Shown here in pieces: positions 1,642 to 60,046 of a stretch of 64,000 nt of DNA. This DNA comes from Eledone cirrhosa (Eukaryota), in NCBI GenBank assembly GCA_964016885.1, contig OZ024740.1:351540001-351604000 (forward strand), written 5' to 3'. Position numbers and translations under genes: made by a program. Within the stretch, counting starts at the first letter, position 1; each line of letters opens with the position of its first letter. Below the pieces are notes generated by a model that made no database searches, was not told the DNA's origin, and saw only the letters and a program-made list of their open reading frames with translations.

Positions 1642-1702
<61 letters not shown>

Positions 1703-3033: not shown

Positions 3034-6000
3034 ATCATCATCACCGTTTTACGTCCGTTCTTCCACGCTAGCATGGGTTAGATGGGTTGTCCTGTTGTGG
3101 GCAGTGTCTGGTCGGCTGACCATGCCTTGCTCATACAGGAACTGATTTGGCTTGATTTCTACAGCTGGATGCCCTTCCTAACACCAACCTCATTTACAGT
3201 GAGTGCTGGGTGCTTTTTCGTGGCGTCTACACGTCCACTTTACAGTGTGGGCTGGGTGCTTTTTTGCCGTGGCACCTCCACAACCACCTTGCAGTGGGGG
3301 TGTGGGGGCATATTGTCTATATGCTTCAGCTTGTACCCATGGGAGGTCGGGTACTCTGTATTACTGCGTGACGCCAGAGATCACGGTCGTGTGTCATCGC
3401 CTTTCAGAGGTGTAATTGGGTAAGGTCGGCTTTTATCACCTCATCCCAGGTCATCTTGGGTCTCCCCACTCCGCGGTTTCCATCGACTTCTAGTGCTCTG
3501 CACCTTTTTATGCAGCTGTCATCCTTCATACGCATCACATGTCCATCCCAGCGCAACCGCCTCTCCTGCACACAGCATTTGATTCCTCTTATGCTCAGTC
3601 TCTCTCTCTCAATTCATTTATGCTTTGTCGTTCGCGTATATTACTGTTACACATCCATCGGAGCATGCAGGCTTCGTTTCTCTCTAATCTACGTAAGTCT
3701 TCCAGCTTCGGCGCCCAGGTCTCACTACCATGCAACATCGCTGTTCGGATACATGCATCATACAGTCTGCCTTTCATTTTGAGGGAGAAGCCTTTTGCAG
3801 CTAGCAGTGGTAGTAGTTCCCTAAACTTCTTCCATCCCGTTCTTACCCTAGTTATTATACTTTCTGAACACCCACCTCCACTGCTAATTCAGTCACCTAG
3901 GTAGCAGAAGCAGTCTACTGTTTCTACAGAGCCCTCCCAGAGATTGGTGGTACTTGTTTCCTGTGGCTGTTTGCTGCTTGCTGTCCCAGCATAGCTGCTG
4001 CATGTGAAGCCTACATTCTTAATTAAGCTTCCTGAGATCCCGCTACATGTCTTGTGTACCCATTGTTTGCATTTGGGGCAGAGAATGGAGTTCCTACCTA
4101 CACCTTTCCTACATACTGAGCAAGGCCATTTCCCTGAGGGGATCTGGGTTCTGTTTTCTCGTCTACTTACAAGGACCTTAGTCTTTGTCATGTTGACTTT
4201 GAGACCCTTTCTTTCTAGTCCCTGCTTCCAAGTTTGGAATTTCTTCTCTAGTTCTACCATAGATTCAGCTATAAGTGCGAGGTCATCAGCATACAGGAGT
4301 TCCCATGGGCATCCGGTCTTAAACTCCTCCGTTATTGCCTGCAGGACTATGATGAACAGGGGGGGCTAAGAACAGAGCCCTGGTGGACCCCAACCTGTAT
4401 GCTAAATTCCTCGCTATACTCATTGCTAATCCTAACTTTGCTGACTGCTCCCCTATACATGGCTTGTACCACTTTCACAAGCCATTCATCTACTCCTAGT
4501 TTTCTAAGCCCACCAGATTACAGCATGTGGAACTCTGTCAAAGGCTTTCTCAAGGTCGACAAATGCCAAGTAGAGTGGCTTACTTTTAGCTAGGTACTTT
4601 TCCTGTAACTGCCTGACAAGGAAGAGGGCATCAGTGGTGCCTCTTCCTGGTACAAACCCAAATTGCATCTCATCTAGTTTCACCCGGTCCCTAATCAACT
4701 GTGCTATAACTCTTTCTGATACTTTCATGACCTGTTCCATCAGCTTTATACCTCTATAGTTTCCTCTATCTAGTGCATCACCTTTACCTTTGTAGCAGTT
4801 GACAATGATGCTACTGCACCAATCTTTTGGTATGACACCTTCTAGTATTACCTGGTTAACAATACGTGTGGTTATAGTGTGACCTACAGACCCAGATGCC
4901 TTCAGCATCTCGGCAGCTATACCCAATGGACCGGTTGCCTTCCCCATCTTCATATCTTTGATTGCCTTACTTACTACGTTGCTGCTGACTTGTACTGCTG
5001 GCCCCTCTATAGGGTCTACTTGGGGTAGGGTCTCTTCTTCCCATGCATTCTCCTCATTTAGTAATCTATCATAATGACTCTTCCATGCATCTTGCTTCTC
5101 AGCACTTGTGAGGGCAAGCTCACCTTTATCATTCTGGATACACTTCTCTCCAATGACATCACAATTCTCTCTGACACACTGCCTCGCAATCTTGTACACC
5201 TCCTGTTTCTGGTCCTCACGTTGCAAAACATGCTTGAATTTTCTATCCTCTGCTTCCCTCCTAGCTAAGTATACTTGTCGCCTAGCTTCCCTCTTGGTCT
5301 CTATGTAATGTACCCTGCTCCCCCCGTTCTTCCATTCTTTCCATGCCTGTCTCTTGGCCTTAACTGCCTCATCTACCTTATTGTTCCACCACCAAGTCAC
5401 TCTCCTCCTGCTTGAGGTCTTACTCCAGCAACAGACCTCATCCGTCGCCTCTAGTAAGTTATTTTTTAGGAACTCCCAGTTCTCTTCTACATTGAATGTC
5501 TCTATCTGTTCTTCTTTACTGTCGTAGGCATTGAGTAAAATATCTTTAAATCTGTTACTGGTTGAGGGGTCTTTCAGCTTCCAGATCTTTCTTCTCCAGG
5601 TTGGCCTCTGTTTCCAGGTTCGTCTAGTTCTGACAGTGAGGTCGCTGACAACTAAGCTATGTTGGGATGTACATTCCTCACTAGGGAAGACTTTTGTGTT
5701 TACGACTGTCCATCTGTCACGTCCTCTGATGAGGATAAAATCTATCTGACTAGAGTGCTCCCCTGATCTATAGGTCATCAGGTGGTTGTTGGGTTTTTTA
5801 AAGTTTGTGTTACATATCGACATGTCATTGGCGTCGCAGAATTCTAGAAGTCTGAATCCTTCCTCATTTCTTGTGCCAACCCCATGGCCTCCATGTACTC
5901 TATTGAAGCCGTCGCAGTGTTTACCTACGTGTCCGTTAAAATCTCCTGCGATGATTAGGAAGTCATTGTCGTCTGTTAGAGCAGTAGTGTGCATTAGGGA

Positions 6001-6098
6001 CTCGTAAAACCTATCCTTAAGTTCGTCTGGCAGCCCTGATTGGGGTGCGTAAGCTGATATTATTGTGGTAATTGTTTTATTCAGGACTAGTCGTATAT
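3034..6098 (-). mobile_element. RTE-clade LINE, 5'-truncated and frameshifted (APE-RT-PHD, long 3' UTR, (GAT)n tail)
   Basis: ORFs 4504-5994 (GDFNGHVG, QIDFIL, QFGFVPGRGTTDA, FVDLEKAFDRV), 3889-4260 and 3595-3777; SAYAPQ APE motif near 6045; tail appears as catcatcatc on +. Confidence 0.95.
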
Positions 6099-6312
6099 TC
6101 TTTCTTTTTCTTCTAGCACTAATGCAATGATACTTGCTCCTTTATTTCTACAAATGTTAATTTCCTCATAATAATGTATGTATGGGTCCATAACTCCTGA
6201 TTGAGTTGTGGGTTACTGTAGTGCCACACATCATTTCTTTGGGTAGTTTTTAAAAACTTGGTGGAGCACATCTCCCTTTCCAGTTCTGAACACAGCTGTT
6301 TTCCTCCAGAGA

Positions 6313-9248: not shown

Positions 9249-9277
9249 CACATACACACACACACATATATATATAT

Positions 9278-11867
9278 AATAAATTTCAAAGCATATTACT
9301 TGATGCTTTCGACAGTAAGGAAGAGCATCTAGAGTCGGATAATATAGAGGGACAGTGGGAATTTCTGAAAGCAAACCTGCTGTTGGCGACAGACGAAGTC
9401 TGTGGCTGGAGCAGGCCTGTAGGCAGGAGGAGAGTAACATGGTGGTGGAACAGTAAGGTGGAGGGGTCAATTAAGGCCAAAAAGCAGGCTTGGAAAGTAT
9501 GGCGGGATGGGGGAAGTAGAGTAGACTATCAAGTGGCCAGGAGGGAAGCTAGGAGAGAAGTGTACTTAGCAAGAAGGGAAGCTGAGGAAAGAAAGTTCAA
9601 GCATGCTCTACAACGCGATGACCAAAAACGTGAGGTGTTCAGGATTGCTAGGCAATGCGTCAAGGAAAACCATGATATTGTCGGGGAGAAGTGTGTACTT
9701 AACGATGATGGCATACTTGCCATCACCGACACTGATAAGAAGGTAGCTTAGAAGTGTCACTATGAAAGGCTACTAAATGAGGAGAATAAATGGGAGAAAG
9801 ACAGTCTCCCCCATATCGACCCAATAGAGGGACCAGCAGTGTTAGTCGAGGGGAGTATAATAAGTAAGGCAATCAAGGATATGAAGACGGGTAAGGCGGC
9901 TGGGCCTTCGGAAATAGTTGCTGAGATGCTGAAGGCATCTGGCACGGTGGGACACACCATGGTCACCCGCATAGTTAACCAAGTCGTACAGAATGGGGTT
10001 GTTCCGAAGGACTGGCATAGCAGCATCATCGTTAACTGTTATAAGGGTAAAGGAGACGCCCTAGATAGGAGTAACTATAGAGGCATTAAATTAATCGACC
10101 AGGTCATGAAGGTCACGGAAAAAGTAATAGCGCAACTAATCAGAGAGAGAATTGACCTAGATGAAATGCAGTTCGGGTTTGTGTCAGGCAAAAGCACCAC
10201 AGACGCTCTTTTCATAGTACGACAACTACAGGAGAAGTACCTAGCTAAAGGTAAACCCCTCTACTTAGCTTTTGTCGACCTGGAGAAAGCCTTCGACAGA
10301 GTCCCCCGCTCCATTATCTGGTGGGCTCTTAGAAAACTAGGCATTGACGAATGGCTTGTGAGGGCTATACAAGCCATGTATAAAGAAACAGTCAGCAAGG
10401 TTAGAATTAACAACGAATATAGTGAAGAGTTTAGCGTAAAAGTTGGCGTCCATCAGGGCTCTGTTCTCAGCCCCCTACTATTTATTATTGCCCTTCAGGC
10501 TATAACAGAGGAGTTCAAGACAGGCTGCCCATGGGAACTCCTATACGCAGACGACCTGACACTCATAGCGGAATCAATGGCCGAGCTAGAGAAGAAATTC
10601 CAAACATGGAAGCACGGCCTAGAGTCAAAAGGACTTAAAATTAACCTGGCTAAGACCAAAGTTCTAGTTTGTAGGAAAGAAAACAAGGCGGCGGTCCCTT
10701 CTGGGAAATGGTCGTGCTCGGTGTGTAGGAAAGGCGTAGGTAGAAACTCCATTTTATGTCCTAAATGCAAAGTATGGGTGCATAAAAGATGTAGTGGGAT
10801 CACAGGTAAGCTAACTAAGAACATAGATTTTACATGTGGCCGGTGTTCTGGTGAAATAAGTAGCAGCAAGTGCCCACAAAATACTAGCTCTTTCAATTGC
10901 GCAGAGGGTTCTATAGAAATAGTGGACAGCTTCCGTTACCTGGGCGATAAAATCAGCTGTGGGGGAGGGTGCTCTGAAAGTACTGTAGCTAGAGTCAGAA
11001 CTGGTTGGAAAAAGTTCAGAGAGCTTATACCACTATTAGCTGCTAAAGGGTTCTCTCTAAAAATGAAAGGCAGGTTGTACGATGCCTGCATACGAACAGC
11101 AATGTTGCATGGCAGTGAAACCTGGGCATTGTGTGCAGAGGATATACGCAGACTAGAGAGGAACGAAGCTTGCATGCTCCGCTGGATGTGTAACAGTAAT
11201 ATACGTGAACGGCAAAGCATAAACGAACTAAAGAAAAAATTAGAGATAAGAGGGATCAGATGTTGTTTACTCGAGAGAAGGCTACGTTGGTATGGACACG
11301 TGATGCGCATGAAAGTCGATAGCTGTATAACAAAGTGCAGGGCAATAAAGATAGACGGTAGCCACGGAATAGGCAGACCTAGAAAAACCTGGGACGAGCT
11401 GATAAACTCCGACCTCACACACTTACACCTCTCCAAGACAATGTCACTGGACCGAGACCTTTGGCGGTACTCAGTAACAGAGAAGACCCGCCTTGCCAGT
11501 AGGCATCTCTAACAAAATACACCCCGTCCCGCCACCACCACCACCCCATCCACACCACCCCGTTCTATGTAAAGTTATGTTGGTGCCGCGCCATCCAGGC
11601 CGAAACAAATGAGATCGTGTAGGTGTCACGACAAAAAAACACACAGTCCACGCTGTAATGTGGCCGTGTAGGCAACACGGTAAAAACCTCCCAGACCCAC
11701 ACTGTAAATGTGGTTGGTGTTAGGAAGGGCATCCAACTGTAGAAAACCTGCCAGACAGTCCTATGCGAGCAAGACAATCACTCTTGCCTCAAGTGGGACT
11801 ACCCCCGTCCAAACCCATGCAAGCGTGGAACACGGACGTTAAACGTTGATGATGATGATGATGATGA

Positions 11868-18013: not shown

Positions 18014-18161
18014 ATGGCTGCCGATCAAAACATCTTGTTGTACGGAAACCTTGATGTTGATGGCCGGCGTAATGTTGTCCTTCTCACACCATACCATCTT
18101 AGTTGGGATTCAACTTCAAAAGCTGGGACTCCGGAGAGTCCGAATGTGGAAGTTATATCAT
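18014..18161 (+). CDS. CERK: Ceramide kinase-like gene, first coding exon (N-terminal PH-domain strands)
   Basis: ATG at 18014 opens MAADQNILLYGNLDVDGRRNVVLLTPYHLSWDSTSKAGTPESPNVEVIS, plus 1 nt, then donor T|GTAAGC. Phase 1 matches the acceptor at 59780 (T+CT = Ser). The pattern resembles the beta1-beta3 region of CERK/SPHK PH domains. Too short for the ORF track. Confidence 0.8.
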
Positions 18162-18467: not shown

Positions 18468-18561
18468 AGTCTCGGGTTCAATCGGAGATATCCACAGTAA
18501 GTAAGGTACTCAATACATTAGTAGAGTATATACGAAATTTAATATAGTAATATAGAAATAG

Positions 18562-18608
18562 CTTCTACAGGACTAGAACTGGTTCATTCGAAGGAAATCA
18601 TCAGGAAA
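18562..18608 (-). ncRNA. Degenerate type I hammerhead motif inside a fold-back element
   Basis: UUUC CUGAUGA UUUC-CUUC-GAAU GAAC CAG-UUCUAGUC-CUG UA GAAG; the opposite arm keeps GAAA but lacks CUGAUGA. Confidence 0.55.
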
Positions 18609-18714
18609 ACCCTTTCTTTCGAATGAAACAGTTCTAGTCCTGTAGAAGCCATTTCTATATTAAATTATATATATATAGTATTACTGATTTCAACTTATAT
18701 ATATATATATATAC

Positions 18715-22160: not shown

Positions 22161-25003
22161 CTCTCATTTCTTCTACAAAGTCTCCTTTCCAACATCTCCA
22201 CAACTTCATTCACCCTGAAATTTATTGTTGTCTATGTAGGTTTAACTGGCCTCCTATGTGGTTGCATCTCATAGGTTTTTCAGTTGTTTTAATGATAAGG
22301 GTTCAGTCCTATCATGAAAAGCAATGCAAAATGGAATATCTTGACCAAGAATACAACATGATGCCCAGTTAAGGAATTGAACCCACAACCTTATCAAGAG
22401 TCAAACACCCTAACTACTAGGTCACATATCTTCCACATCCTGAAATTTATTATCTGACATTGACTGGAATGCCCTTTGGCATCTGTACTATATCTAAACC
22501 TGAAAGGATATGTGTAATGGCTTGATGATGGTCAAGCGCTTCTCATATATGACTAGGTGTTTCCATTTAGCCATATGTGTTTATGTTTACAGTTTGCTGG
22601 TGGTACAAGAATATATAGAAATACGTGCCAGAATAGAAAAAACTAGTACTGGGATTGATATGATCAACTAGATCCTTTGAAGGTAATGCCCTGGCATAGC
22701 TGCAGTCTAATGACTGAAACCAGTGAAAGAAAATAAAAGAAATATATCATCATTAAAGCCTGAGTTAGACCTTATTTGGAGTTACTGCTTGACTAGACAT
22801 ATTCGAGGTTTGATCAAATACTTCTAACATAATCACTTAAGTGTATTGGGTGCATTTATCATAGCACCAACTCTAAAGTGGTTGCATTGACCTCTGCAAG
22901 GCTAAAAATTCCATTCCATTTTACATACTTTCCATTCTTCGAAGGCAAACATGATTAGCAGTGATTTGAGCAATGGCCAGTTGGTTGAAATGGGGTAAGT
23001 CATGGACGAGGGAAGTGGTCAGAGTGTTAGGCTGGTAGATGTTGATTGTTGAATTAACAGGCATGGAAAGGTATGAGTTTGTATATTACTTTAGCAAGGT
23101 GGTTACACTTAAGTGTGACGTGAATTTTGACTAATTTAGGGGTGGTGATAGAGATGGGGTTATTTTGGTCACATACGTTTTGAAGCATTAGCATCATTTT
23201 ATGATATCGGTGAGACGAATTTTGTCAAGATTTCTGTTCAACATTTTGCCAAAATATTTGAAAGAAGATAGACATACGCACGCACACACAGATATATATA
23301 TATTTATAATATAAATTGTGCGTATTACAGTACACGCTAGTTCGTTACAATCTTGGCAAATATATTTAATTGACAAATATTTTACGTTTTATTTATTTAA
23401 TTCATGTTCACTTCTGTCTCTCGCCCTTTCAATAAACATCCATCCTTTTTTCATTGTATTTCATATTACAATAAGCGATGTTCAGTAGGGTTACAAGTAT
23501 CCCATTATTATATTAATGCATATGTATACATGCACATTAGTTCACACGTCGATACGTAATGGATTAAATGTGTCAGTTTTATTTCAAGACGGAGGAAGGT
23601 GGTGTAGTGGTCTTTGAAATAATTGTTACATTTCTAGGTTGAAATTCTGTTAATTCCTTACCCTAAGCCTTCCCTTTTTTGCTTTTAAATTGGGTACACA
23701 CAACACGTGTTTCACACGTCAGCTTGCGTTTGGTTTCATGAAGTGTGGGATCCTCAATTAACAAGCGTACCAGCCAAGCTATATAGTGGCCACATCAGTT
23801 GGAGTCGGCTGCAAACATTGTATGTATGTATATATGTATGCATGTGAATGTTTGTGTGTGTATATATTGCGATAATGTTTATTTTTGTAATTTTACACAT
23901 TCTGGCTTTTCATCTTTACATGAACAAAACAAACGAGTTGGAATCCCACAGGGGGTCAGCTTTGCCTTTCATCTTCCCTAAGTCGATAAAATGAAGTACT
24001 AGTGAAGTACTGGAGTCGATCTAATCGACTAACCCTTCGCTTCAAATTTTCTGATCTTATACCTAAATTAGAAACCATTAGTATCGGTAGAGGGTTGGAC
24101 GCCATGCTTTGACGCATAGAGTTACGGCTCTTGCCATTCTGAGTTCAAATCCCGTCGAGGTTAACTTTGCCTTTCATCCTTACGGGGTCGATAAAATAAA
24201 GTACCAGTAATGCACTGGTAATTGCTGGCCTTGTGCCAAAAGTAGAAACCATTATTACTGGGAATTATTATTTCTTATTTGTCAACATCTTTACTGAAAA
24301 CTCGCTATTGACATTTACATGACGCACATTCACACAAGTGCAATACCCAAAACATATGTATGTATGCTTTATATCTGAAACCATAGTTATTGGTTGGTGT
24401 TATTTAGCCCCAGGTCAGCCCTGATCGTATAGTCCTTTGAATCGAAAACGTTCCAGCTGTGGCATTATATCCAATTTATCTTTTCTGTTTTTAAGACGTA
24501 AGATATGATGTGAGGGAGATTTGGCTGCTATTTTTGTAGCAGGACTACGTAGAAGCTACTTTGTTGTTGTTGGTAGTATTGGCTCTTCCTCAATGCTAAG
24601 ATATTTTCACTGCTCTTTAATATTATCGACGGTATGTATGAATGAGAGAGAGAGAGAGGGTAACTGACTGTAACCATCTATTATTTATATCTTTCAGTGT
24701 TTGTAAACAACCTCGACCATTCAACTTCAACCTCTCACTACAACTCTCATTTTCTACCCAACCTTTAATTCCATTCTCTGATAGTTCTCTTCTTAGAACC
24801 TAGGCCAAATACTGGCTGCTTTGGATATTTCTGATGTGAACTGTAGCACTACTTGTAGTAATTGTGGTGGTGGTAGTTTTTGTTTATAGTATAGATGAGC
24901 ATCAGTGAAATCAGTAAAGTTTGTTCCAATGATCCCTCTCTATCCTTGGTACAAGACCACACATTTGCAGGGAAAATGTATAGTCACCTGAGTTGATCCC
25001 ATT

Positions 25004-25495
25004 ATTGGCAGTATCGGTAGAGGGTCGGACGCCATGCTTTCCAGCATAGTCACGTCCCTTTACGATCTGAGTTCAAATCCCGCCGAGATTGACTTTGCCT
25101 TTCATCCTTACGGGGTCGATAAAATAAAGTACCAGTAATGCACTGGTTAATTGCTGGCCTTGTGCCTAAAGTAGAAACAATTAGATGATGACCCCGCCGA
25201 GGTTAACTTTGCCTTTCATCCTTACGGGGTCGATAAAATAAAGTACCAGTAATGCACTGGGATAATTGCTGGCCTTGTGCCAAAAGTAGAAACAATTATA
25301 TGATGACGGTGATTGGCAGTATCGGTAGAGCGCCAGACACCATGCTTTGCAGCATAGAGTTTGCCCTTTACGTTCTGAGTCCAAATCCCGCCGGGATTAA
25401 CTTTGCCTTTCATCCTTACGGGGTCGATAAAATAAAGCACCAGTAATGTACTAGGATAATTGCTGGCCTTGTGCCCCAAAGTAGAAACAATTATA
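25004..25495 (+). mobile_element. Tandem triplet of SINE family 1
   Basis: Full, 5'-truncated and full copies head-to-tail. Confidence 0.9.
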
Positions 25496-25710
25496 TGACT
25501 GGTACTTGCAAAACGTTCGGTCCCAAACTGTGGTTCCGGTTAGCTTTACTCCCACATCGAATTGAACTTAATTATAAACCTAGCCCTGATTAGACTTGAT
25601 ATTCCCTTAATTATTGGGTATATGAGATATATGTATGTATGTGTATATAAGTATGTGTGTATGTATATATGTGTATACATGTGTGTGTGTGTGTATATAT
25701 ATATGTGTGT

Positions 25711-25751
<41 letters not shown>

Positions 25752-25869
25752 TTAATCAATTTAAACGTCAGTATAGAGCTAGTAAGCCATGGCAGGACTA
25801 GGGAAAGTATCTAGTATTTCTTATAGTTGAGAAACAAAAAAAAAAGAGATTAAGTAAAAACGCGCGCAC

Positions 25870-25941
<72 letters not shown>

Positions 25942-26190
25942 GCATACACATACACACACGTGTATATATCTGTGCCCATGCTTATATAAATCAGTACATC
26001 TATTTGCATCCTTTTATGGACGCCAAAGGTTAAACTTAACTATTCGATAGAAATCGATAAAATAAATAAAATCAGAAGTACCCGGGGCGTTATGATGGAC
26101 TAAAAACATTTGAAGGAAATAGCTCAGCATGGTAAAAACAACTACATAGAATGTCAGGAATAACAATTAATCGTTACTGCTTGATTTGAT

Positions 26191-26520
26191 AGGAGAGTTG
26201 AGGAAAATAAACTCTTCAAATATCAGTCGCTCTCCGACAGGTTTGCGGTCGAGCCCATAGCAGTGGAAACTGCTTGTGTCCTTGGCCCTAGGGCCACCTC
26301 CCTATTAACCATCATCGACTCAGAGTTGTCTACCCGCAGGTGTGAACCTTTCGAGCTGGAATGGCTCTTCCAGCGCGTCTTTCTTACCACTCTCCGGGGA
26401 AACGCCTTCTGTATTCTGGCCCACGTGCTGCGGGCCCGTCAGCGCGTGGGCCCCCATTTGCTCATAAGGGGGAGAGACGGGGGTAATGACAGTGGGAGTT
26501 TGGTTCCTTTGTATTCGGAC
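26191..26520 (+). mobile_element. CRE-clade (RLE-type) non-LTR retrotransposon 3' fragment
   Basis: In frame EENKLFKYQSLSDRFAVEPIAVETACVLGPRATSLL...EWLFQRVFLTTLRGNAFCIL, matching the K..KY..L...F.PIAVET.G.LG....FQR.S....RGNA C-terminus of CRE elements. Confidence 0.75.
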
Positions 26521-26542
26521 CTGGTGTATATGTATGTTTATT

Positions 26543-26625
26543 TACCGCACAAAAAAAATAAAATGTATACACATTTTGATTAGAATGCTGTTGAAGTATG
26601 TATACATTTTTTGGGACACCCTGTA
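26543..26625. mobile_element. Tiny Tc1/mariner-type MITE
   Basis: Right end TGTATACATTTTTTGGGACACCCTG|TA; decayed inverted left end AAAATGTATACAC. Confidence 0.55.
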
Positions 26626-27488
26626 TAATATTCTGTTTGATGATTCATTTATTTACTTTTACACATGCCTAGAGTCGATGAGAGGCCAAGAATTCCATCA
26701 ATGATTTGAAAAGTTTTGTGATCCTTCTTCTCCTGTGTCAATGGAAATATCTAGGTGTGACCAGTATTTACGGATATTTGAGGTCATACAACTCCGTGTA
26801 CAAAGTGACTGATGATACACGACATATCTAATTATTTCGCTAACAAAAACTGTTGGGAAAAATGTTATTTTTATAAAGTATTGCCAAGGTGAAAAGTTAA
26901 AAAAAAAAAAAAAATGACAAACACTGGCCTAGATTGTTTGTGTGATGTTTTATTAAGCCATCATTAGTCAATCAGGTCAGCAGTTTTTGGACTACCGTAA
27001 CTACTGAGTTACTGGCGTTACTATTGAGTTACGACTATTAGAAATGTGATATGATTGACAGGTGGTGGGTCTTTATTGTGGTGTGTTTATGAGTGACATA
27101 CTTGCTAAATCTCAATGTCCATTTAGTGCTGCGTATGTGATGTCACGCCCCTTTACAATCTGAGTTCAAATCCCGCCGAGGTTGACTTTGCCTTTCATCC
27201 TTACGGGGTCGATAAAATAAAGTACCAGTAATGCACTTGGTAATTGCTGGCCTTGTGCCTAAAGTAGAAACAATTATATTTTGCCTTTCATCCTGACGGG
27301 GTCGATAAAATAAAGTACCATTAATGCACTGGGTAATTTGCTGGCCTTGTGCCAAAAGTAGAAACAATTATATTTGTCAACAGACAATGCTTAAAACTTG
27401 ACGGCGCTTTGTAGTATGTATGTTCTTAATATTCGTAATATTTATGCCCATTTATGTATGTGATTACATAATATATAATTTATAAGTA

Positions 27489-27658
27489 CAGCCTGTTTGC
27501 TTTTTACGCGAATTAAATATTCACTCTGCACGAATAACGCGCTATAGCGCGTATGGTTTTTACTTTTTTTTTTATTGGAAACTTAGACTCGAATTACGCA
27601 AATTTGCTTTACGCGCAGCTTTCTAGAACGCATCTTCGCGTAAAAAGCGAACAGGATG
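27489..27658. mobile_element. Pogo/Tigger-like MITE
   Basis: TA|CAGCCTGTTTGCTTTTTACGCG ... CGCGTAAAAAGCGAACAGGATG terminal inverted repeats. Confidence 0.7.
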
Positions 27659-29998
27659 CATATATACGCCTGAACGTGTTTACTTTACTATTGACATGTG
27701 TGTGTGTGTTGTATATCTCTTGGTTAGTTTAATCCCACTATGTTGCACCTTAGCCTTTGCCTAGATTCGGCTGAGGTTTTATGAGTGAAATTACGTAGAT
27801 GGGAACGGTGCAAGCTCATGGAAGGGACCGTTTCTGTTTGGGAAGATTAGACTTACTCCGTCGTACAGAATACGCTACCACTCAATCCTTGGGTACCTTT
27901 AGCAGAGTCCAGTTACAAAGGTTCTGAAAAACGCTAAGCCATTAAGGATAACAAAAGGTATTCCGACCTTGAAAAACCTGTCTTTAGTTTATAGAGTTGA
28001 TACTATGTCATTAGTGATTTCGCTGCTATTTCTAACTTGTCGAAAGGTTCCATTCTTAGGCTGGAGTATATGCGTGATGTAAAAAAATAATTTAGAAGGA
28101 AAGGGAAAAAAAATCTATTTTTGTTCCACTGGAAGTTGGTTAACATGATATTACATAAAAATAAACCACAATTTGTGACTAAAGTTTATCTCTTATTTAT
28201 TTGGTTTTTAACATACAAAGGCCACATAAGTGTGTGTATTTTGGCTTAACAGGAGGAGCTTAAGAATCAGTTAAAATATCTGCTGTTCTTTGTTTTGATA
28301 TTTATTACCATATATACGCTTTGTTGTTGTTTTGGAACTTTATCATATCAACAATCAGCCAGCTGTTTTCAAATACGCGCTGAATTGGCAGTATCGGTAG
28401 AGGATCGGACGCCATTTACGTCCCTTAACGTTGACTTCAAATTCCGCCGTGGTTAATTTTGTCTTTCATCCTTACGGGTCGATAAAATAAAGTACCAGTA
28501 ATGTACTGGGATAATTATTGGCCTTGTGCCAAAAGTAGAAACAATTATTATTTACTGTTTAGTTAGAGAAGGAAAGGTAGTATCTATGAGCCTTTCAAGG
28601 CATTCAAGTCTGCTAAGAGGAAGTTATCCTTAAATGGGAGATTTGTTCCAAATACTTGCAATAGAGTGCACTCCATTAAAGGCACTCGTGTGTTTGGTAG
28701 CAACGTTAAACGAGGTGACAGATTAAGTCAACCATCCAAGAAAGCCACTATGATTTTAAGATTGTGGGTTCAAGCCTTGAACAAGTCACTTCATTTCATG
28801 TTGCTCCAGCCTACTCAGCTGAAAATAAGTACCAATAGCAGGTAGGCAGTTAAACTTGTAATGGACTGGCATCCCATATAAAGAGGAGTTGTGTACTTGT
28901 CACTTAACGTTACATGAAACTAGGATAAGCCTTGGACTGATGAACCTCTAGGCTAAAGTAAGGCTTAAACTTTTAAAGAAACATCATAAAACCAGAGTGT
29001 TCAGGTGGAGAGAATAATACCTTGATGCCTGGACGTGCACACTAGTTCTCTCCTGATTTTCACTTCTGGCTCTGGGACATTTTTCAGCCACACCCCAGTA
29101 ATTGCTTCTGCTGGCAGCCTAAACTTAGTGAAATGGACTCTGCCAAGCACTTCTAAGGACAACTGAAATGCTATAATGAACACACAATCAAATGTCTAGA
29201 GTGGCATCCAATGACTGGCTGCACCAGTTGCAAGAACTTCATTGATGATAAACGTTTATCATGTACAAAGACAGTTGTATTAATTTCCAAAAAAAGCAAG
29301 TGTATGGTGTAGTTATTGTTTAGACATCTTCCTGATTGAAGGATTGTCCATAAGCTCAAATGCATGTGTGGCTCAAATATCCATAGGTAGAATCTTTACT
29401 TGGTGAATATGCTTTAAACTCATTTAAACTCTTGCAATCATTCTTTCAGTAATTCCATTTGATTCTGGATATGGAGTTGTTTTCATAAGTTTATTTCCAA
29501 TTTTATAAAGTTATGTGCATATAATCATTATCATGAAATTCACAGGCATTGTCAGATACAAATCTTTTTGGAACAGTATTTGTGGAAAACATCATCATCA
29601 TCATTGTTTAACATCTATTTTTCATACTTGCAAAGGTTAGACAGTTGTCATGTGTTGAGGCAAGACTGATCAAGTGACTTGGTCCTGCTCATACACTTTG
29701 TTTTTGTTTGGTTTCTATTGTTGGATGTCCTTCCTAATGCCAATTACTTTGTGTACTGGGAGCATAGTTTCTACACCTGGACACCCTTTCTAACACTAAC
29801 CACTTTACAAAGTGTACTGGGAGCATTTTATCATGACTGTCACTACCACCTTACAGGGTGGAGTAGGTGCTTTTTGTTATGGCACCAGCACTACCACCTT
29901 ACAGGGTGGATTGTGGGGGTGTTGTTGTGGCATTAAATTTCCACTTAACTGTTTCTGCTTTTGTATTCCCAACATTTATTATTTCTGTCCACCTAGAG

Positions 29999-30955
29999 CA
30001 GAGGTTCTCAAAGTGGCTCTAATGCAGCCCCGGGACCATTGAGAACTTCCATGGGTGTGGTGGGGTTGAGGTAGAGATGTTATAATAGTATATTAAATAT
30101 CAAATTATACATATATATATATAGTAAAATAAAAAATATATATTTATTTATACATAGCATATATTATAATATTTATTATGTATATATAAATTAACGATTT
30201 TATTTATTTATATATTACTAGCAGAAAACCACCGTTCAGGTGGTTTTCTGCTAGCATATGTAGTGTGCATTACGCAAGTATATATGCATGTAGATATGAT
30301 ACATCAAATAAAATCGTAATTGACAATATACACAGAAATTGAATGAAGACTGCGTTATACTGTCATATGTAATCAGTAACATAATCCATGATACATTAAA
30401 AAAAGACGATATTATATATAAACTGCATTAGGAGAAAATTAGTGACGGATATATATGCAATGTTTTTATAAATGTTATAATATAACCGGAAGTGTTGACA
30501 TTTGAAAATTTTAAAGAAGTGAATCTTAAAATAAGCCACAAAATTATTTATATTTAATCAAGAATAACGAAATTTAGTAGATAAACTATGTAATATTCAT
30601 ACATTATTTATTCCAGCATAGTTACATCCCTTTATAGTCTGAGTTCAAATCCCGCCGAGTTTAACTTTGCCTTTCATCCTTACGGGGTCGATAAAATAAA
30701 GTACCAGTAATGTACTGGGTAATTGCTGGCCTGGTGCCAAAAGTAGAAACAATTATTTATTCAAAGTAATCCAACTTATTTTACAAACGGGATGAAAAAA
30801 TATATTCTGGATGCAGTCCTGCACTTCTTACTTTATTATAGTTTAGATTTACAATTTGCGTTTAGACAGGTCTCTCTGGAAATAGGTGTGGGGGCGCTGA
30901 GTGTATTATGTAGCCGTGAAGTGGGGCAGTGGCCCAAAATGTTTGAGAACCTCTG
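29999..30955. mobile_element. hAT (Charlie-like) non-autonomous element
   Basis: TIRs CAGAGGTTCTCAAA / TTTGAGAACCTCTG; 8-bp TSD acctagag / accttgag. Confidence 0.85.
30218..30847 (-). mobile_element. Non-autonomous Helitron (family B) carrying a SINE
   Basis: Reverse-complement homolog of 12594-13068, with a SINE at ~30613-30757; inserted between A and T. Confidence 0.75.
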
Positions 30956-31539
30956 ACCTTGAGTATGCATCAACATGAAATTCTTAGCATAAGCAAGATC
31001 CATATGCACATATATCCAAGTTGTAATTTCTTTAGGTCTTGTGTGTACTGTGTGAAGTAATTCTGGTATTATTCTAGCATATGTTGGACAGTTTCTTACA
31101 TATTGTTCCACATCTTCACAGTAACCTAACCACCATACTTATAATTTCAACTAATTCATTGTTGCCATTGTGCCACAGTGTACACCACCATGCACATTTT
31201 TTTTATTATTGATGTTCTCAAACAGGTTGGTGGAACAGTCCATTATACAGGTAGCATCTTCAACTACTAATTTGTTTTCTAATTACTTAAATGGCCTTTC
31301 AACAATGGAATAATTGCTCCAATTATAAAATCCTTTTTAATATACCAGATAAAATACCATTGGTAGACTCTAATTTTATATTTTCAGATTTCTATCAGTT
31401 TCTATTGGATAGATGAAAACAATCAAACCATTAATAATAAATTCCAATCATGATAATGCAGCAACATATGATATTTCAGATCCCTTTACATAATATATAT
31501 CTTAATAAAATGATGTCATTTGTAAGGCTCATCTTAAAA

Positions 31540-31727
31540 TAATGCATAACTTTTTCAAAATATATATTCTAATGCATAACTTTTTTCAAAATATATATTC
31601 TAATGCATAACTTTTTTCAAAATATATATTCTAATGCATAACTTTTTTCAAAATATATATTCTAATGCATAACTTTTTTCAAAATATATATTCTAATGCA
31701 TAACTTTTTTCAAAATATATATTTTAA
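31540..31727. repeat. Tandem repeat, 6 x 30-31 bp
   Basis: Unit TAATGCATAACTTTTTTCAAAATATATATTC, no spacers. Confidence 0.95.
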
Positions 31728-34700
31728 TAGCCTATGATCCGAAAGCAGTTAACAGTTTTGGCCAAGCAGAAAATTATATGCTCTTCAAGTTACCAATATT
31801 TGAATATCTTGTTTCATTTATAGTTAATGTCTCTTGATAAATATTGTACATGATGGCTATTGTGTGAAAGTATTTCTGATAGAGCCAATTCTTAAAGTAA
31901 TTTCTTTCAGGTATCATAAATCTTGACCACTGGCTTTAATACTAACATTAGGTTTATATACTCAATTATCTTTTATTGTTGGACTCTCAATGAAAATGGT
32001 TGCTCTCTTTACAATGAGATACAAACAACAACACACAGTCTGGGTGTTGATCAATATATTTTCTGTAGAAATCGACAAGTCCAAGAAAAGATTCTAATTG
32101 CTTCCTGTCTTTTGGTAGTTTATGAGATAATTCTCACAAGTAAAGGATGATCTAAGGATATAACATATTTTGTCAATCTGTCTCCAAAAAGACAATTCAT
32201 CAATCTGTAACACAGGCTTAACTTGATTGATCACCATGATCAGGCTTGATATTTCCAATCTTTTTACTATCTTATATGTATTGAACTGTAGAGTTTCAAC
32301 AATTTAGCACCAATACATACCATCATTTTCATATATAATAATACTAACAATGTCATTTCCAGCAGCATGTTCCATTTCTCTCAGAAACATAGCACTGATG
32401 GTATAAATTTGGCCATTTGTATTCGCAATCATATTCTTTCATAGGTAAGGGTTCGCATAAATACCGAATTGAAGATAGCAAGTTTTGTTTTTAAATCTAC
32501 CTCCCTTCTCTTGACTGAATGCTGAAGCTGGTGCATTACTGTACCAGCTCCTGCAATTCTTGCACTTAATTCTGCCTCTTGCCTTCCATCACTTGTGAAC
32601 ACGGCTTCAGTGGAATTCCATTCACATGTAGAGTGCTCTGTGCAGGTTTCCTTGAGAAGATGAGTTTCTTAGTTTTCACAGCATTGATTTTCATTCCTGC
32701 CATGCAGCACTCGGAAGCAAAATATTAGCATAACAGTTACATAAGATTGTTTTCATTTGACCAGTGATTCAATGCAGTATGGTATCTTTGCATAAGTTTT
32801 CACCCTACATTGTCTTTGCTGAGAATCTTTAATCATCTGTCAAATTTTCATTCTACCAGATAATCTCAGTTCTTTGCTATCTTCTACTTCATCTGCCCTT
32901 TCAGTTCTAACTTGTGGTACTTTTTCATCAGCATTTATCCTCTATTTGTTTACTAATTTATTTGCCTATTTCATATCTATTAACTGATACACTTGACATT
33001 TATTTCCTTAACTTATTTGCAGCCAACCTATTTCCAAAATTTAGGTTCAACACATAACAGCCCACACACTCACCTATAATTTGGTATTCTAACTCTACTG
33101 CTCAACTTTTACTATTACGCATCATCTGTTCCAACTCAGATATGGTACAGTCTATCCTTTATTTGGGTTTTATGCCTTCTGTGTTCAATTCTCACCAAGG
33201 TCACCTTTGCATTTCCTCCTTTCAGGATTAAATAAATAATATACCAGTGCAATGTTAGTGTTGGAGAGAATAACTTGCACTATCCGATCCAGCTCTGTGC
33301 ATTCAGACATTGACTCTATATAACTGTCTTCCTATTGGAACATCTTATTTCAATCTTTGTATACTGTGTTAAATTGGGCAGTGGATTAAGTCTACCACCC
33401 AAGTAGATCACAGTGGGATTTGAACTCAGAATGCAAAGTGCCAGAACAAATACAGCAAAGCATCTTATCTGACACTATAACAATTCTGCCAATCAACTGC
33501 TCTGAACTGATTCTTTATTTCATTGACCCTCAAAGGTTAAAAGGCAAAGTTAACTGGCGAGATTTGAATTGATAGTGCAGAGAGCCAAAACAAATACTGC
33601 AAGGCATTTTGTTGTATGCTTTAATATATTTACCAACTTGAAGAAGATTTGGCTACTATATCTTGCAGATTTATTGACTGTGTGAGGTTTCTTCACCGGT
33701 TTGTTATTGTTTCTTTTCTTTAGTACTTTACAAAAGAAAATGCAAAGTTAGTAGAAATTGGGTGTTAAGTTATCGGTTTTAGGTTCAAATACTGTCATGG
33801 TCAACATGATATTTCATCTATTCAGGATTGATAATGTAAGTTACATTATTTTCACATAGTAACAGTACATTCAAAAGTTTATCCCTAGCTTAGAGGATCA
33901 CCAGGTGGGAACTTATATCAGTTTCATTGGTTTTATATGCCTGAAAATGCAAGGAGACCTTAGACAGGATACTAGCCCATTGAAATGTTAACCTCCAGCT
34001 GTTGGTAATAATTTTTTTCAGTTGGGTTAATTAGGGCTACATGAAATGAAATGTCTTGCTTAAGGAGACAGTGTGCCACCCAGTTTGGGAATTTAACCCA
34101 TGACGTTATGGTTCACAAGCCCAACATTCTTACCATTTGTATGCCTTCACAAAGAATGGCAAATCTTCTACTCCTGCTTTTGCTTGTTTTTACACATCTG
34201 ATATTTTCTTTCCTCTTAAGACATGTACACCACTTAATTAAACATTGAGCACATAACATTACTTCTAATTAAAATCTTGCACATACCATATAAATCTGAT
34301 TCTCTTGTTAGGAATATTGATATGTTGATATCTGTTTGTGGATGTCAGTTAAATGCAGCTTGTTATTAACTTTCAATGCTGTGCTTGTTGCCAAGAAACA
34401 CTGCTACATTCATTACTCTCAGAATCCATCTCTCCTTTTAGCCATCATATTGTTAGTAAATGTTGTGTGTCAGTTAATCAATTATAGTGCATTTACCTTG
34501 TGTAAGTGTGTTTTTGTTGTTTAGTCAGAGGGGAAGGGAGGGTCAGTGTCCATGGCCAATTTTAAGAGCCTCTGAGACTTGTAAGAGTGAAAGAAAGGAA
34601 AATGTCTTCAAACTTGAGACCTTACTTGAATTCTTGCAATAGAGTGGATTCTGCTAAAAGCACCCAATGGCCAGGAGATGGTGGTGTTAAACCAGCTGGT

Positions 34701-43631: not shown

Positions 43632-44047
43632 CGAGGGGGGATCAAAAAGTTTGCGGAATTTTTCAGAAAATATTCTATTTTTCAAAAAATATGATTTAAC
43701 TTCAATTTATTTTTCTACATAGTTGCCATCCAGGTCAATACACTTCACAAAGCAATGCTTCCAACTCCGTCAGCCGTCTCTAAAGAAAGTTGAAGGCCTT
43801 GTTCGAAGCCATGTGTTGGCAGTGTTTTTAGCTTCTTCAACACCACTAAAACGGGTTCCTTTTAGCATTTCTTTGAGTTTTGGAAAGAGGAAAAAGTCTG
43901 ATGGGGCTAAATCTGGACTATAAGGCGGGTGAGGAAGCACTTCCCATCGAAATTCTCGAAGAACTTCTTTTGCAACCCGCGCAGAATGCGCTGGTGCATT
44001 GTCATGGTCAAACAAGATCCCACCATGAAATTTCCCTTTTCGTTTCT
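43632..44047 (-). mobile_element. Mariner (DD34D) transposon, 3' half with TIR
   Basis: HDNAPAH and PHPPYSPDLAPSDFFLFPKLK motifs; terminus TA|CGAGGGGGGATCAAAAAGTTTGCGGAA at 43630. Confidence 0.93.
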
Positions 44048-44394
44048 TCGCAGTAATACAGAGTACCCGACCTCTCATGGGTACAAGCTGAAGCATATAG
44101 ACAATATGCCCCCACACCCTCCCACTGCAAGGTGGTCGTGGAGGTGCCACGGCAAAAAAGCACCCAGCCCACACTGTAAAGTGGACGTGTAGGCGCTACG
44201 AAAAAGCACCCAGCACTCACTGTAAATGAGGTTGGTGATAGGAAAGGCATCCAGCTGTAGAAATCAAGCCAAATCAGTTCCTGTATGAGCAAGGCATGGT
44301 CAGCTGACTAGACACTGCCCACAACAGGACAACCCGTCTAACCCATGCTAGCGTGGAAGAACGGATGTAAAACGGTGATGATGATAATGATGAC
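44048..44394 (+). mobile_element. 3' end of the long-UTR RTE subfamily
   Basis: Near-identical to the reverse complement of ~3034-3370, ending in (GAT)n. Confidence 0.9.
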
Positions 44395-47914: not shown

Positions 47915-48658
47915 TCATTGCTATAAGTTTAGTCGTCTGACATGGTGATGGTAGTATCACCATTACTATCCTGATAGTATCAGTATATCATATTACTATG
48001 GATATATAGTATATATTCACACACCCTTAATCTATACAGCTCCTTATCTTTTGTCATGCATGTTGCATGTTTGTATTGCATGATTGATCCAGAGTAGTTG
48101 TTGTTTTATAGATTATTGTGATTTTGGTGGGCTTTAATATTCAGTGAATTTCTCAGGCTATTTGTTTTCAACCTGTTTTTCAAGATCATGATCTTCTAAT
48201 ACAGGTTAAATTCAAGGACTCCGGGAAAATAACTGAGCCTATAAAGTACACACACACGCATGCACACACCACATCATCATTTAATGTCTATTTTCCATGC
48301 TAGCATGGATTACATTGGTTGTCCAGGTCTTGCTCATACAGAACTGTTTCTGGCTTGGTTTTTATGGCTGTGTGCTGGGTGCTTTTTGTTGTGACACCTA
48401 CACGACCATTTTAGAGTGTGGGCTGGGTTTTTATATATATTTATATATACTCATAGTCTGCGGTAAGGGGATCGGTAAGACCACAAATCAGTGTACTACT
48501 CAATACATGGCATGATGCAGAGTGGGTATATTGATATATATATGTAGTGTGTGTGTGCTGTCTGTCGCACAATGTTTTACTTATTCTCTTGCTATATGCA
48601 CCATTTGCAACATTTAGTTACCTAATTTATCTCTAGGTATGCTGTTGAGATAATCCTT

Positions 48659-48742
48659 ACTCCTGTTGAAAAGCCCTAGGATTATGTGACAGAGCCACTA
48701 ATTTTCGGCGAAACAAACTCTATCTGTAGTTTGTCCAGGAGT
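48659..48742 (+). ncRNA. Type I hammerhead ribozyme, complete (U3-A8 core variant)
   Basis: Stem I ACUCCUG/CAGGAGU; core UUGAAAA (48666-72); stem II GCC...GGC with extension; GAAA (48710-13); stem III ACAAACU/AGUUUGU; GUC triplet 48733-35. Confidence 0.85.
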
Positions 48743-50357
48743 TTAATAGTTATTGAAATGGTTATTTGATTCATTTTTTCCGGTTATGTATTTTCCGTTT
48801 GTTCATACATTGCACTAAAGTGGTTTCAGACCCATGTAATTCAAAACACATTTCTTTGTGTGTTTATTTCTATATATTATATATATATGAAGAGGACAAC
48901 TATATTTCTTCTGTTTGACCATAATACTGCTTAACACAATATTATCTTACAAAAATTATTTTGCACAGCTATTTTCCTGTATGCCACTAGAAGCTGTTGC
49001 TGCCCTTGAACATCATTCACTAGCTTGAAATCCTATACATTATACTGTTGGAGAAATGTTCATGATGATGATGATGACTTTTTATCTCTAGTATTAATTA
49101 GGTCAGTTAAAATTACCGAGCCTACTTCATCAAATCATTGAAACAGTTCAAAGTCCATCATATAATATTCAGTCAATTGACCTAATTAATAGTGCAGGCA
49201 GTGCACCAAATGCACTTTGTTAATCTATATAAAAATCATGTGGTACTCTTCTATGTTGCTCTTGGTTATTAGGAAGTGATTTTTTTTTTTACAAAATGAA
49301 AATATGAAATCTGATACATATTTAAAAAATGAAATGATGCATGTCAGAAAAACAGGCAGCATTGTAAATAAGCTGTAAATATTTGGGGAAAATAAAGAAG
49401 TGTAGTAACTGAATATACTGTGTTGGACTATCAGCTCATAGCTTGTTTATTCATAGTTACTGTTTCATTGTTTAAAATCCAACAAGTTTTCTAGGTAATA
49501 GCAGCTAACTCTCCTTCATATCACACCCTATCATCTCAAAAGATATATTGGATAACATAGTCCTAGTTAATCTTCTGTCTGGGATATATTTTTGATCATA
49601 TGTCTGCTCAATGGAGGCTGAATTGGGGCTTAACAACATTACAGATTTTTATGGAGTACCTGTATTAAGTTCACTTAGTATTGAAGTGAGTTTATCTGTA
49701 ATCTATTTGATGCTTCAAAATTTCCAGATAAACATTGGATGCATAAGCTATTGGAGTTTGAGTAATTGCTTATTTATTATTAATATACTAAGAATGTGCA
49801 GTGGGATTATATGAAACCATTCCTTGTGCTATAAAAACATATCAAGGAAGCACTTAGCCTGTTAATACCCCCTTGGAAACAACATCAAGAAGACAAAACA
49901 AGTGAACTGCCTGGTTGTTAGTGTTAATATCAAAGCCGTAACTTGAGATAGAATTAGTTTGTATTTATGTAAACATCTTTCCAGCCAGTATTTTTTGTAG
50001 GAGATAAATGTAAAATCTATACATAATATAAAAGAGAGATGTTTGTTGGTTGTTTTTTTTTGCGCATCACACAAAAATGAAAAGTGACAATCGAAAAGTA
50101 AGTACAACAATGGAATAAGGCTATACCCAGGAAAGTTTATTGATATTAATTTTATAACATCAAAGAAGAAAAACATCCCAGGTATGCTAACAAACCTGAC
50201 TGCTATTTCCATCAGGTTGGGAATCAACCATAAGGGATTCTCTGTGCGCATTCGTTGTTAGTGATGATCGTGTTTCGCAGTCAGCGTCTCCGATTTGAAT
50301 GCTGGTTTACACACACAATTACACGCACGCACGTACACACACATTTGCATATAATTA

Positions 50358-59779: not shown

Positions 59780-60046
59780 CTCAAAACCGCTATACCATTG
59801 AACTGAATGAAGTAATCGGAGTAACAACAGAAAAATATGACAGTAGTAACAATGGATTTTCAACAAAAGATTCAAGTACCCTCTTTATGGAAATGCAAAC
59901 ACTTAAGCCCCATGTGTTTTCAGTTTTTCACATCCGCAGAATCGGTCATCATAAGTGGCGTGAACGTAAAGTAACATTTCGCTGTAGAGACAGCTCAACT
60001 TGCCAAATATGGGTAGAATCTATCCGAAAAGGCTTATGCAACCCAA
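59780..60046 (+). CDS. CERK: Ceramide kinase-like gene, internal exon (PH domain core)
   Basis: Acceptor ttttttaattttAG|C and donor A|GTAAGT; 267 nt, phase 1-1. Encodes QNRYTIELNEVIGV...KPHVFSVFHIRRIGHHKWRERKVTFRCRDSSTCQIWVESIRKGLCNP, which aligns by eye to human CERK KPYAFTVHCVKRARRHRWKWAQVTFWCPEEQLCHLWLQTLREML. Confidence 0.9.

Follow-up and report, generated by a model that had tools for sequence, protein, structure and literature searches.

A Type I Hammerhead Motif in the CERK Intron of Eledone cirrhosa, a Probable Passenger in an Old Penelope-Type Repeat with a Candidate Blocking Hairpin

Introduction

Penelope-related repeats commonly carry hammerhead ribozymes, and a further intronic copy is by itself an ordinary find. 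Most animal type I hammerheads have a helix III of only 1–2 bp and require dimers, and in PMC4209133 a large helix III is reported for fungi and protists only. Hammerheads in which core positions 3 and 8 form a U-A pair occur in nature (PMC3088659; PMC4209133). The mobile elements themselves leave characteristic marks in genomes, namely 5′ truncation, partial tandems, inverted 5′ copies, a tail, and insertion into microsatellite targets (PMC8557442). Animal retrozymes have been argued to derive from Penelope repeats; 42–44% of Xenopus retrozyme copies are intronic, and one of nine tested dimers cleaved (bioRxiv 10.64898/2026.07.22.740005).

Because most animal retrozyme RNAs are predicted to fold freely, how they keep their ribozyme quiet is a question left by the discussion in PMC7229834, where self-pairing is described as the block in viroids and plant retrozymes and not in most animal ones. 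Within introns, fast ribozymes are reported to abort splicing and slow ones to be without effect (Fong 2009, as cited in PMC10919898).

Here, we describe a type I hammerhead motif in an intron of the ceramide kinase gene (CERK) of the octopod Eledone cirrhosa, together with the repeat family that carries it. Our searches of the open-licence literature turned up neither a cephalopod hammerhead family nor the hairpin reported below, and the supplements of PMC4209133 and PMC7229834 may contain similar mollusc motifs. The word "ribozyme" does not occur in PMC13282606 on Octopus vulgaris repeats.

Results

A hammerhead motif on the sense strand of a CERK intron

The window analyzed is a stretch of 64,000 nt, in whose coordinates all positions are given; features lie on the plus strand unless marked otherwise. 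A descriptor match and the predicted fold identify a real type I hammerhead motif at 48659–48742, in which three helices of 7, 3, and 7 bp surround the core and helix I is open, as in type I; cleavage is predicted to occur after position 48735. The descriptor places the two strands of helix I at 48659–48665 and 48736–48742 (7 bp), and descriptor and family alignment together place core positions 3–9 (UUGAAAA) at 48666–48672, where the 3-8 pair is U-A. Helix II occupies 48673–48709 and consists of 3 bp (GCC/GGC, 48673–48675 with 48707–48709) closed by a 31-nt loop. The segment 48710–48735, assigned by descriptor and folding, holds the GAAA sequence (48710–48713), a 7-bp helix III that folding places between 48713–48719 and 48728–48734 with an 8-nt loop, and GUC (48733–48735). 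Core letters U4, G5, A6, A9, G12, A13, and A14 are all present, as are the A15.1-U16.1 pair, the NUH site, and the G10.1-C11.1 pair. Every element named in the initial annotation was found where it had been placed, and its identification of a hammerhead is upheld by descriptor, fold, and shuffles.

With minimum helix lengths of 5, 3, and 4 bp and only Watson-Crick pairs allowed, the descriptor matches this site alone in the window, in agreement with the claim that no other motif there has three intact helices, and it finds nothing on either strand of 150 block-shuffled windows. An isolated piece of 101 nt adopts the hammerhead fold at −23.1 kcal/mol (z −2.0), with 9 of 200 shuffles folding equally well. 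In folding predictions, helix III has a probability of 0.97–1.0 in all 21 tests of context and temperature, and helix I ranges from 0.00 to 0.97 across seven sequence contexts at 37 °C. A model of the repeat family described below (R1) scores 135.7 bits at 48659–48742, this copy being part of its training set, and recognizes no second site in the window. The initial annotation had pointed to the Rfam hammerhead models; no Rfam family reached its gathering score in the window, and the nine matches at E ≤ 10 between 46000 and 51000 do not include hammerhead models. Pattern scans for the motif in metagenome contigs and in viral contigs returned no matches in either set.

A longer helix II had also been proposed, extended by AGGAUUA/UAAUUUU and GUG/CAC pairings. 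This extension is present in the minimum-energy fold of the CERK-intron copy, without covariation among 79 copies of the repeat, and it was rejected: the paired share is 77.2%, versus 77.2% when shuffled (280/500), and there are 8 two-sided changes versus 5.5 (73/500).

The first coding exon of CERK (18014–18161) was placed by alignment with the O. vulgaris protein, and an upstream untranslated exon is possible. Its peptide is identical to residues 1–49 of O. vulgaris ceramide kinase at 45 of 49 positions and has no Pfam match. The second coding exon (59780–60046) matches the PH_CERK profile (E 9e-13) and has a single match in the genome, and its peptide shares 94% identity with O. vulgaris ceramide kinase, in which residues 1–49 run straight into the exon 2 peptide with no coding exon in between. 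The exon borders delimit a first coding intron of 41,618 nt (18162–59779; GT..AG, phase 1). The hammerhead resides in its sense strand, with the predicted cut 11,044 nt upstream of the acceptor, so the position originally assigned to it, in a 41.6-kb intron about 11 kb before the next exon, is accurate. The site and the 5′ junction are identical in three sequencing runs of one sample, possibly the assembly's own source; reads of three RAD runs do not reach the flanks.

The window contains other repeats. Approximately 400 nt into the CERK intron, 18560–18665 is an inverted pair of another repeat's 3′ end, whose minus-strand copy resembles a minimal hammerhead, with CUGAUGA, a short hairpin, GAAC in place of GAAA, and a similar TA-rich end word. 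Two LINE-like reverse transcriptase copies at 3500–6141 (minus strand) and 9277–11512 (plus strand) are 74% alike and mutually inverted; judging by motifs, we take them to be of the RTE type. A 141-codon fragment at 43770–44195 (minus strand) is presumably mariner transposase-like, again by its motifs. A SINE-like repeat of 145–200 nt occurs at 1895, 7435, 17002, 24111–30755, 45917, 46805, and 62181, and near-identical copies of a 31-nt tandem repeat make up 31520–31759.

The motif lies within a copy of a non-coding repeat of ~525 nt

Identity to other copies reveals that 48554–48888 is a 5′-truncated copy, about two thirds in length, of a ~525-nt non-coding Penelope-type repeat. It begins at position 261 of a natural long copy used as reference (L009) and ends at the fixed 3′ end of the family. 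A 301-nt query returned 243 candidate loci, and the 40 that were scored, the window itself aside, have identities of 78–87%. Searching the genome with a 24-mer that bridges the cut site gave 104 matches with at most two mismatches (control, 0), and 46 of the 100 listed sites were newly added to the copy set. When mapped on L009, at least 119 distinct segments span the cut site, a few of which may be duplicated regions (e.g., L198/L199) or copies of the sister family described below. Most of these segments (93 of 119) share a common 3′ end, and their 5′ ends are spread through all nine 50-nt bins; 31 of the 119 enter a tail of ~75 nt, 25 carry an inverted copy at the 5′ end, and 6 are longer than one unit. 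DNA resembling (TA)n lies beyond 35 of the 62 tail-less 3′ ends. In the CERK intron, a (TA)n target sits at the 3′ end of the copy (48879–48889), and the same 11 letters recur at 48534–48544, possibly as a target duplication of low complexity. The fixed 3′ end, variable 5′ ends, inverted 5′ copies, optional tail, and (TA)n targets of the repeat bear out the link to Penelope elements made in the initial annotation.

Five copies (L005, L009, L012, L053, and L063) continue from the 3′ end through the tail into the same unit again with no frame between, which defines a closed unit of ~525 nt. The unit has a GC content of 34%, and in three full-unit copies its longest open stretch is 56–69 codons, with no reading frame for reverse transcriptase (RT) plus GIY-YIG. 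On inspection, the flanks common to copies consist of the tail, inverted copies, microsatellites, and common repeats, with no shared coding continuation. Among the 100 listed of the 104 sites, no intact two-ribozyme tandem was seen, the one same-strand pair carrying an internal deletion. The cut site was considered as a definer of copy 5′ ends and rejected, since the starts within positions 400–500 of the reference scatter over 403–492, with only 1 of 19 at the site; the copies thus bear no trace of cleavage. The abundant SINE-like repeat of 145–200 nt is often inserted in, or adjoins, copies of the hammerhead repeat.

A sister family reveals variation in the ribozyme core

A sister family with ~70% identity to the hammerhead repeat (1,204 candidates) has the same layout and the same closed unit. 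Among 77 copies of the main family, N7 (48670 in the window) is the only core position that varies freely. The 3-8 pair is U-A in 70 of these 77 copies, and among 29 sister copies it is C-G in 12, U-G in 8, and U-A in 6. The initial proposal that U3-A8 is a compensatory version of C3-G8 is strengthened by this covariation inside the lineage and by the reported activity of a U3-A8 hammerhead in vitro (PMC3088659). In helix I, 70 family copies have U-A at 48661-48740 where 26 sister copies have A-U, and the 10.1-11.1 pair of helix II is G-C in 53 family copies, G-U in 6, and A-U in 5. From these comparisons, we conclude that selection acted on the ribozyme in its source elements. A C occupies core position 4 in 13 of the 29 sister copies (L211–L240), whose helix III has an internal pyrimidine loop.

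A hairpin joins the 5′ flank to loop II

Covariation and folding point to a hairpin of ~21 bp formed by a 5′ arm just upstream of the motif (48636–48657) and a 3′ arm inside loop II (48678–48699), which a 7-nt linker (48700–48706) connects to helix II. Across 79 copies, the inner helix (48646–48657 with 48678–48689) is 82.4% paired versus 79.1% when shuffled (0/500) and has 35 two-sided changes versus 16.9 ± 3.4 (0/500), exceeding all six slid registers; the register was picked after being sighted in the copies, and the pair test is therefore not blind. In the main family, 8 pairs change on both sides versus 6.9 when shuffled (147/500), and the sister family alone has 16 two-sided changes versus 9.7 (7/500), with a paired share reached by 60/500; related copies share changes. 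Three of the top 9 among 780 column associations fall on the hairpin register, and of two pairs restored by compensation, one is found in 10 copies and the other in 8, with no copy in both sets and a single origin possible for each. The outer pair 48642-48694 is C-G in 56 and U-A in 5 copies of the family, and U-A in 9 and C-G in 6 copies of the sister family. Paired changes of this kind could also stem from DNA-level correction of near-palindromes.

In the sister family, the arms differ in sequence and still pair. The median energy of duplexes formed by the two arms of the same copy is −17.8 kcal/mol in the family (65 of 77 copies usable) and −18.4 kcal/mol in the sister family (29 of 29); cross-family duplexes have medians of −11.6 and −9.7 kcal/mol, and shuffled ones −8.1 kcal/mol. 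Folding predicts the hairpin for 38 of 65 family copies and 17 of 29 sister copies and prefers helix II in 6 of the 65 and none of the 29, an either-or that is overstated because the folding program does not admit pseudoknots. Two less decayed copies fold with z values of −4.3 and −2.8. RNAalifold, applied to the 79 decayed copies, returned no pairs and thus no consensus structure.

A helix of 21 bp extends for ~59 Å, which is greater than the span of the 7-nt linker. On these geometric grounds, a full-length hairpin likely blocks helix II and would exclude it in cis. If only the inner 12 bp remained paired, 17 nt would be available to span them, and a pseudoknot would become possible. The hairpin might instead act solely as an activating pseudoknot, with its inner part docking helices I and II to yield a fast monomer without an off state, the element still being a passenger. 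Such a role would suit a helix whose inner end lies 1 nt from the 7-bp helix I and 2 nt from the 3-bp helix II, uses no core letter, and has its strongest covariation in the inner 12 pairs, and a pseudoknot joining stems I and II is reported for ~40% of hammerheads (PMC3088659). However, outer pairs are also kept and covarying, as with 48642-48694 in both families, the full helix leaves a linker of only 6–7 nt, and the pseudoknots published in that source measure 4–6 bp. We therefore regard docking as the sole role of the hairpin as unlikely, and favor a hairpin that blocks.

Autonomous Penelope-like elements in the genome

The genome contains 10,596 candidate GIY-YIG frames, of which 150 were scored. 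One locus, L141 (G000:C1:145868000-145877000), encodes a 938-aa RT plus GIY-YIG frame; a repeat on either side of it contains a minimal hammerhead with the core UUGAAAA, and the element ends in (TA)n. L141, L142, L146, L152, and L154 represent a Penelope-like family with near-identical U3-A8 minimal hammerheads in the terminal repeats. No partner for the ~525-nt unit was found by blastn or by the family model in 40 GIY-YIG loci (the top 20, plus 20 chosen for longer open frames, of the 10,596 candidates). Since none of these 40 matches the unit, it is by inference that we consider its mobilization by the genome's autonomous Penelope-like elements likely.

At one further locus (L106, ~1648–1685, minus strand), the 3′ end of an L141-type element abuts a 5′-truncated copy of the hammerhead repeat at a TA run. 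At least five additional hammerhead-like motifs, belonging to other repeat families and mostly located 50–200 nt before (TA)n, occur at L143, L144, L146, L147, L149, and L151. The genome seems rich in hammerhead-like motifs.

Could the copy in the CERK intron represent a terminal repeat that belongs to an autonomous Penelope-like element yet to be found, rather than a self-contained non-coding unit? The terminal repeat of L141 is laid out alike, in that a TATA-like word, a possible promoter element, precedes U3 by 72 nt there and by 73 nt here (48593–48596) and the 3′ end follows 177–222 nt after U3; both end in a similar T-rich/TA word, and most Penelope insertions are 5′-truncated to one terminal repeat (bioRxiv 10.64898/2026.07.22.740005). 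On the other hand, the five self-closing copies pass through their tail free of any frame, the flanks of copies lack a shared coding continuation, and the sister family has the same closed unit, which together render a terminal-repeat origin quite improbable and favor the self-contained unit.

The copy is old, with an intact ribozyme and a weakened hairpin

Within 48554–48888, 23 of 329 letters (7.0%) differ from the commonest letter of their column, the family median being 9.2% (rank 12 of 44), and 18 columns are deleted; the closest copy is 91% identical. A calibration from another species, in which a distance of 0.065 corresponds to 18 million years (PMC13282606), suggests a rough age of ~9–19 million years. 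The alternative of a young transposable-element copy, raised in the initial annotation, does not fit a copy with this divergence and these deletions.

None of the 11 private changes in the copy falls in the 44 constrained letters of the ribozyme, an outcome that neutral decay at the private rate of 3.3% would give with P = 0.22. An equally intact ribozyme is found in 10 of 79 copies, which were chosen by similarity, a procedure that favors intact ones. The intact ribozyme of this copy is unremarkable under neutral decay, and selection would also give the same result. Three private changes break pairs of the hairpin, at 48639 and 48647 in the 5′ arm and at 48692 in the 3′ arm, leaving 8 contiguous pairs (48650–48657). 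Because these changes weaken the hairpin, a hammerhead fold is predicted to form more easily in this copy than in most: within 48630–48754 the hammerhead is favored, with a helix II probability of 0.85, as in only 6 of 65 copies. The piece transcribed ahead of the 3′ half of the ribozyme is predicted to fold as the weakened hairpin.

Host co-option in the manner of the RECK hammerhead or the CPEB3 ribozyme, tuning CERK splicing through a cut 11 kb before exon 2, might be read from the sense orientation, the 44 of 44 intact letters, the weakened hairpin, the place among the six hammerhead-favoring copies, and the precedent of the mouse Cpeb3 ribozyme, which is located 9,931 nt upstream of the following exon and influences its mRNA (PMC10919898), but it is highly improbable given that the motif still lies within a whole repeat copy, that its intactness is both expected by chance (P = 0.22; 10 of 79 copies) and the reason it was noticed, that its fold is context-dependent (helix I probability 0.00–0.97 in seven contexts at 37 °C), and that domesticated cases are defined by orthologous conservation (PMC3088659; PMC10761166; PMC6155905). 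The initial suggestion of a host role meets at least 119 copies, conservation within the range of neutral decay, and the loss of family hairpin pairs at this very locus, and a function in CERK is unsupported.

Discussion

We conclude that the CERK-intron hammerhead is probably a passenger in an old, 5′-truncated copy of a Penelope-type non-coding repeat, and that this repeat probably carries a blocking hairpin. According to the mechanism we propose, source elements would be transcribed as more-than-unit or circular RNA, and a Penelope reverse transcriptase would copy this RNA with priming at (TA)n DNA. Given the stable helix III, the weak-helix, dimer-only control of most animal hammerheads would not be usable; the hairpin would control the ribozyme in its place. 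It would be complete before the 3′ half of the ribozyme is synthesized, and at full length would leave 7 nt to reach back over ~21 bp, such that helix II could not close in cis. Opening of the outer half would free helix II, whereupon a pseudoknot formed by the remaining inner pairs could dock helices I and II.

A fast cutter in the single-copy CERK gene would likely be selected against, which makes slow or partial cutting the likelier state; slow or partial cutting of the CERK pre-mRNA as a side effect of decay is plausible. A stronger version of the proposal describes an animal retrozyme lineage in which the 21-bp hairpin leaves the core unpaired and blocks helix II of a monomer-competent hammerhead by geometry alone, with release by partial unzipping or by trans pairing of two copies, and in which neutral decay has unlocked the CERK copy to cut the pre-mRNA fast enough to rival splicing. 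Taken as a whole, this version appears doubtful to us.

The covarying hairpin offers, for one lineage, a testable answer to the question of how retrozyme RNAs are kept quiet, and the same lineage displays C3-G8, U3-G8, and U3-A8 cores side by side. If decay unlocks copies, hundreds of old intronic insertions could become accidental cutters, and accidental unlocking of this kind, if true, may be one way in which the domesticated intronic hammerheads of amniotes arose.

Compared with the RECK hammerhead and the HDV-like CPEB3 ribozyme, the CERK-intron motif shares the sense strand of a long intron and, with CPEB3, a distance of ~10–11 kb to the next exon. Those ribozymes are isolated and conserved across species, whereas the CERK copy is a decaying member of a repeat family. 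As in pseudoknotted hammerheads such as human C10orf118 (PMC3088659), loop II pairs with a strand beside helix I, but with 12–21 bp here versus 4–6 bp there, a length predicted to suffice for excluding helix II in cis.

With the hammerheads of Penelope pseudo-LTRs, including the U3-A8 hammerhead of Schistosoma Cercyon (PMC4209133), the repeat has in common the U3-A8 core, the near-3′ position, 5′ truncation, inverted copies, a tail, and (TA)n targets. It differs from Penelope pseudo-LTR elements in lacking an RT/GIY-YIG frame and in having a tail of ~75 nt rather than the 30–40 nt of Penelope-like elements (PMC8557442). Animal hammerheads in PMC4209133 are of minimal form, in which helix III is short or missing and helix II is long, unlike the 7-bp helix III and 3-bp helix II found here.

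The closest likeness is to non-LTR retrozymes, which are likewise non-coding, have a GC content below 45%, contain a type I hammerhead, exist beside autonomous Penelope-like elements, and commonly have intronic copies. The differences are that our repeat occurs mostly as dispersed sub-unit copies with inversions and not as tandem arrays, that its unit is 525 nt versus 170–400 nt (PMC7229834) or 51–972 nt (bioRxiv 10.64898/2026.07.22.740005), that its helix III is 7 bp versus 1–2 bp in animal retrozymes, and that it has a covarying, putatively blocking hairpin, whereas in most animal retrozyme circles the ribozyme is predicted to remain free (PMC7229834). Because no intact two-ribozyme tandem was seen among the 100 listed sites, we file the repeat as a retrozyme variant and not as a strict member of that class, one that by analogy would work like a Penelope-mobilized retrozyme.
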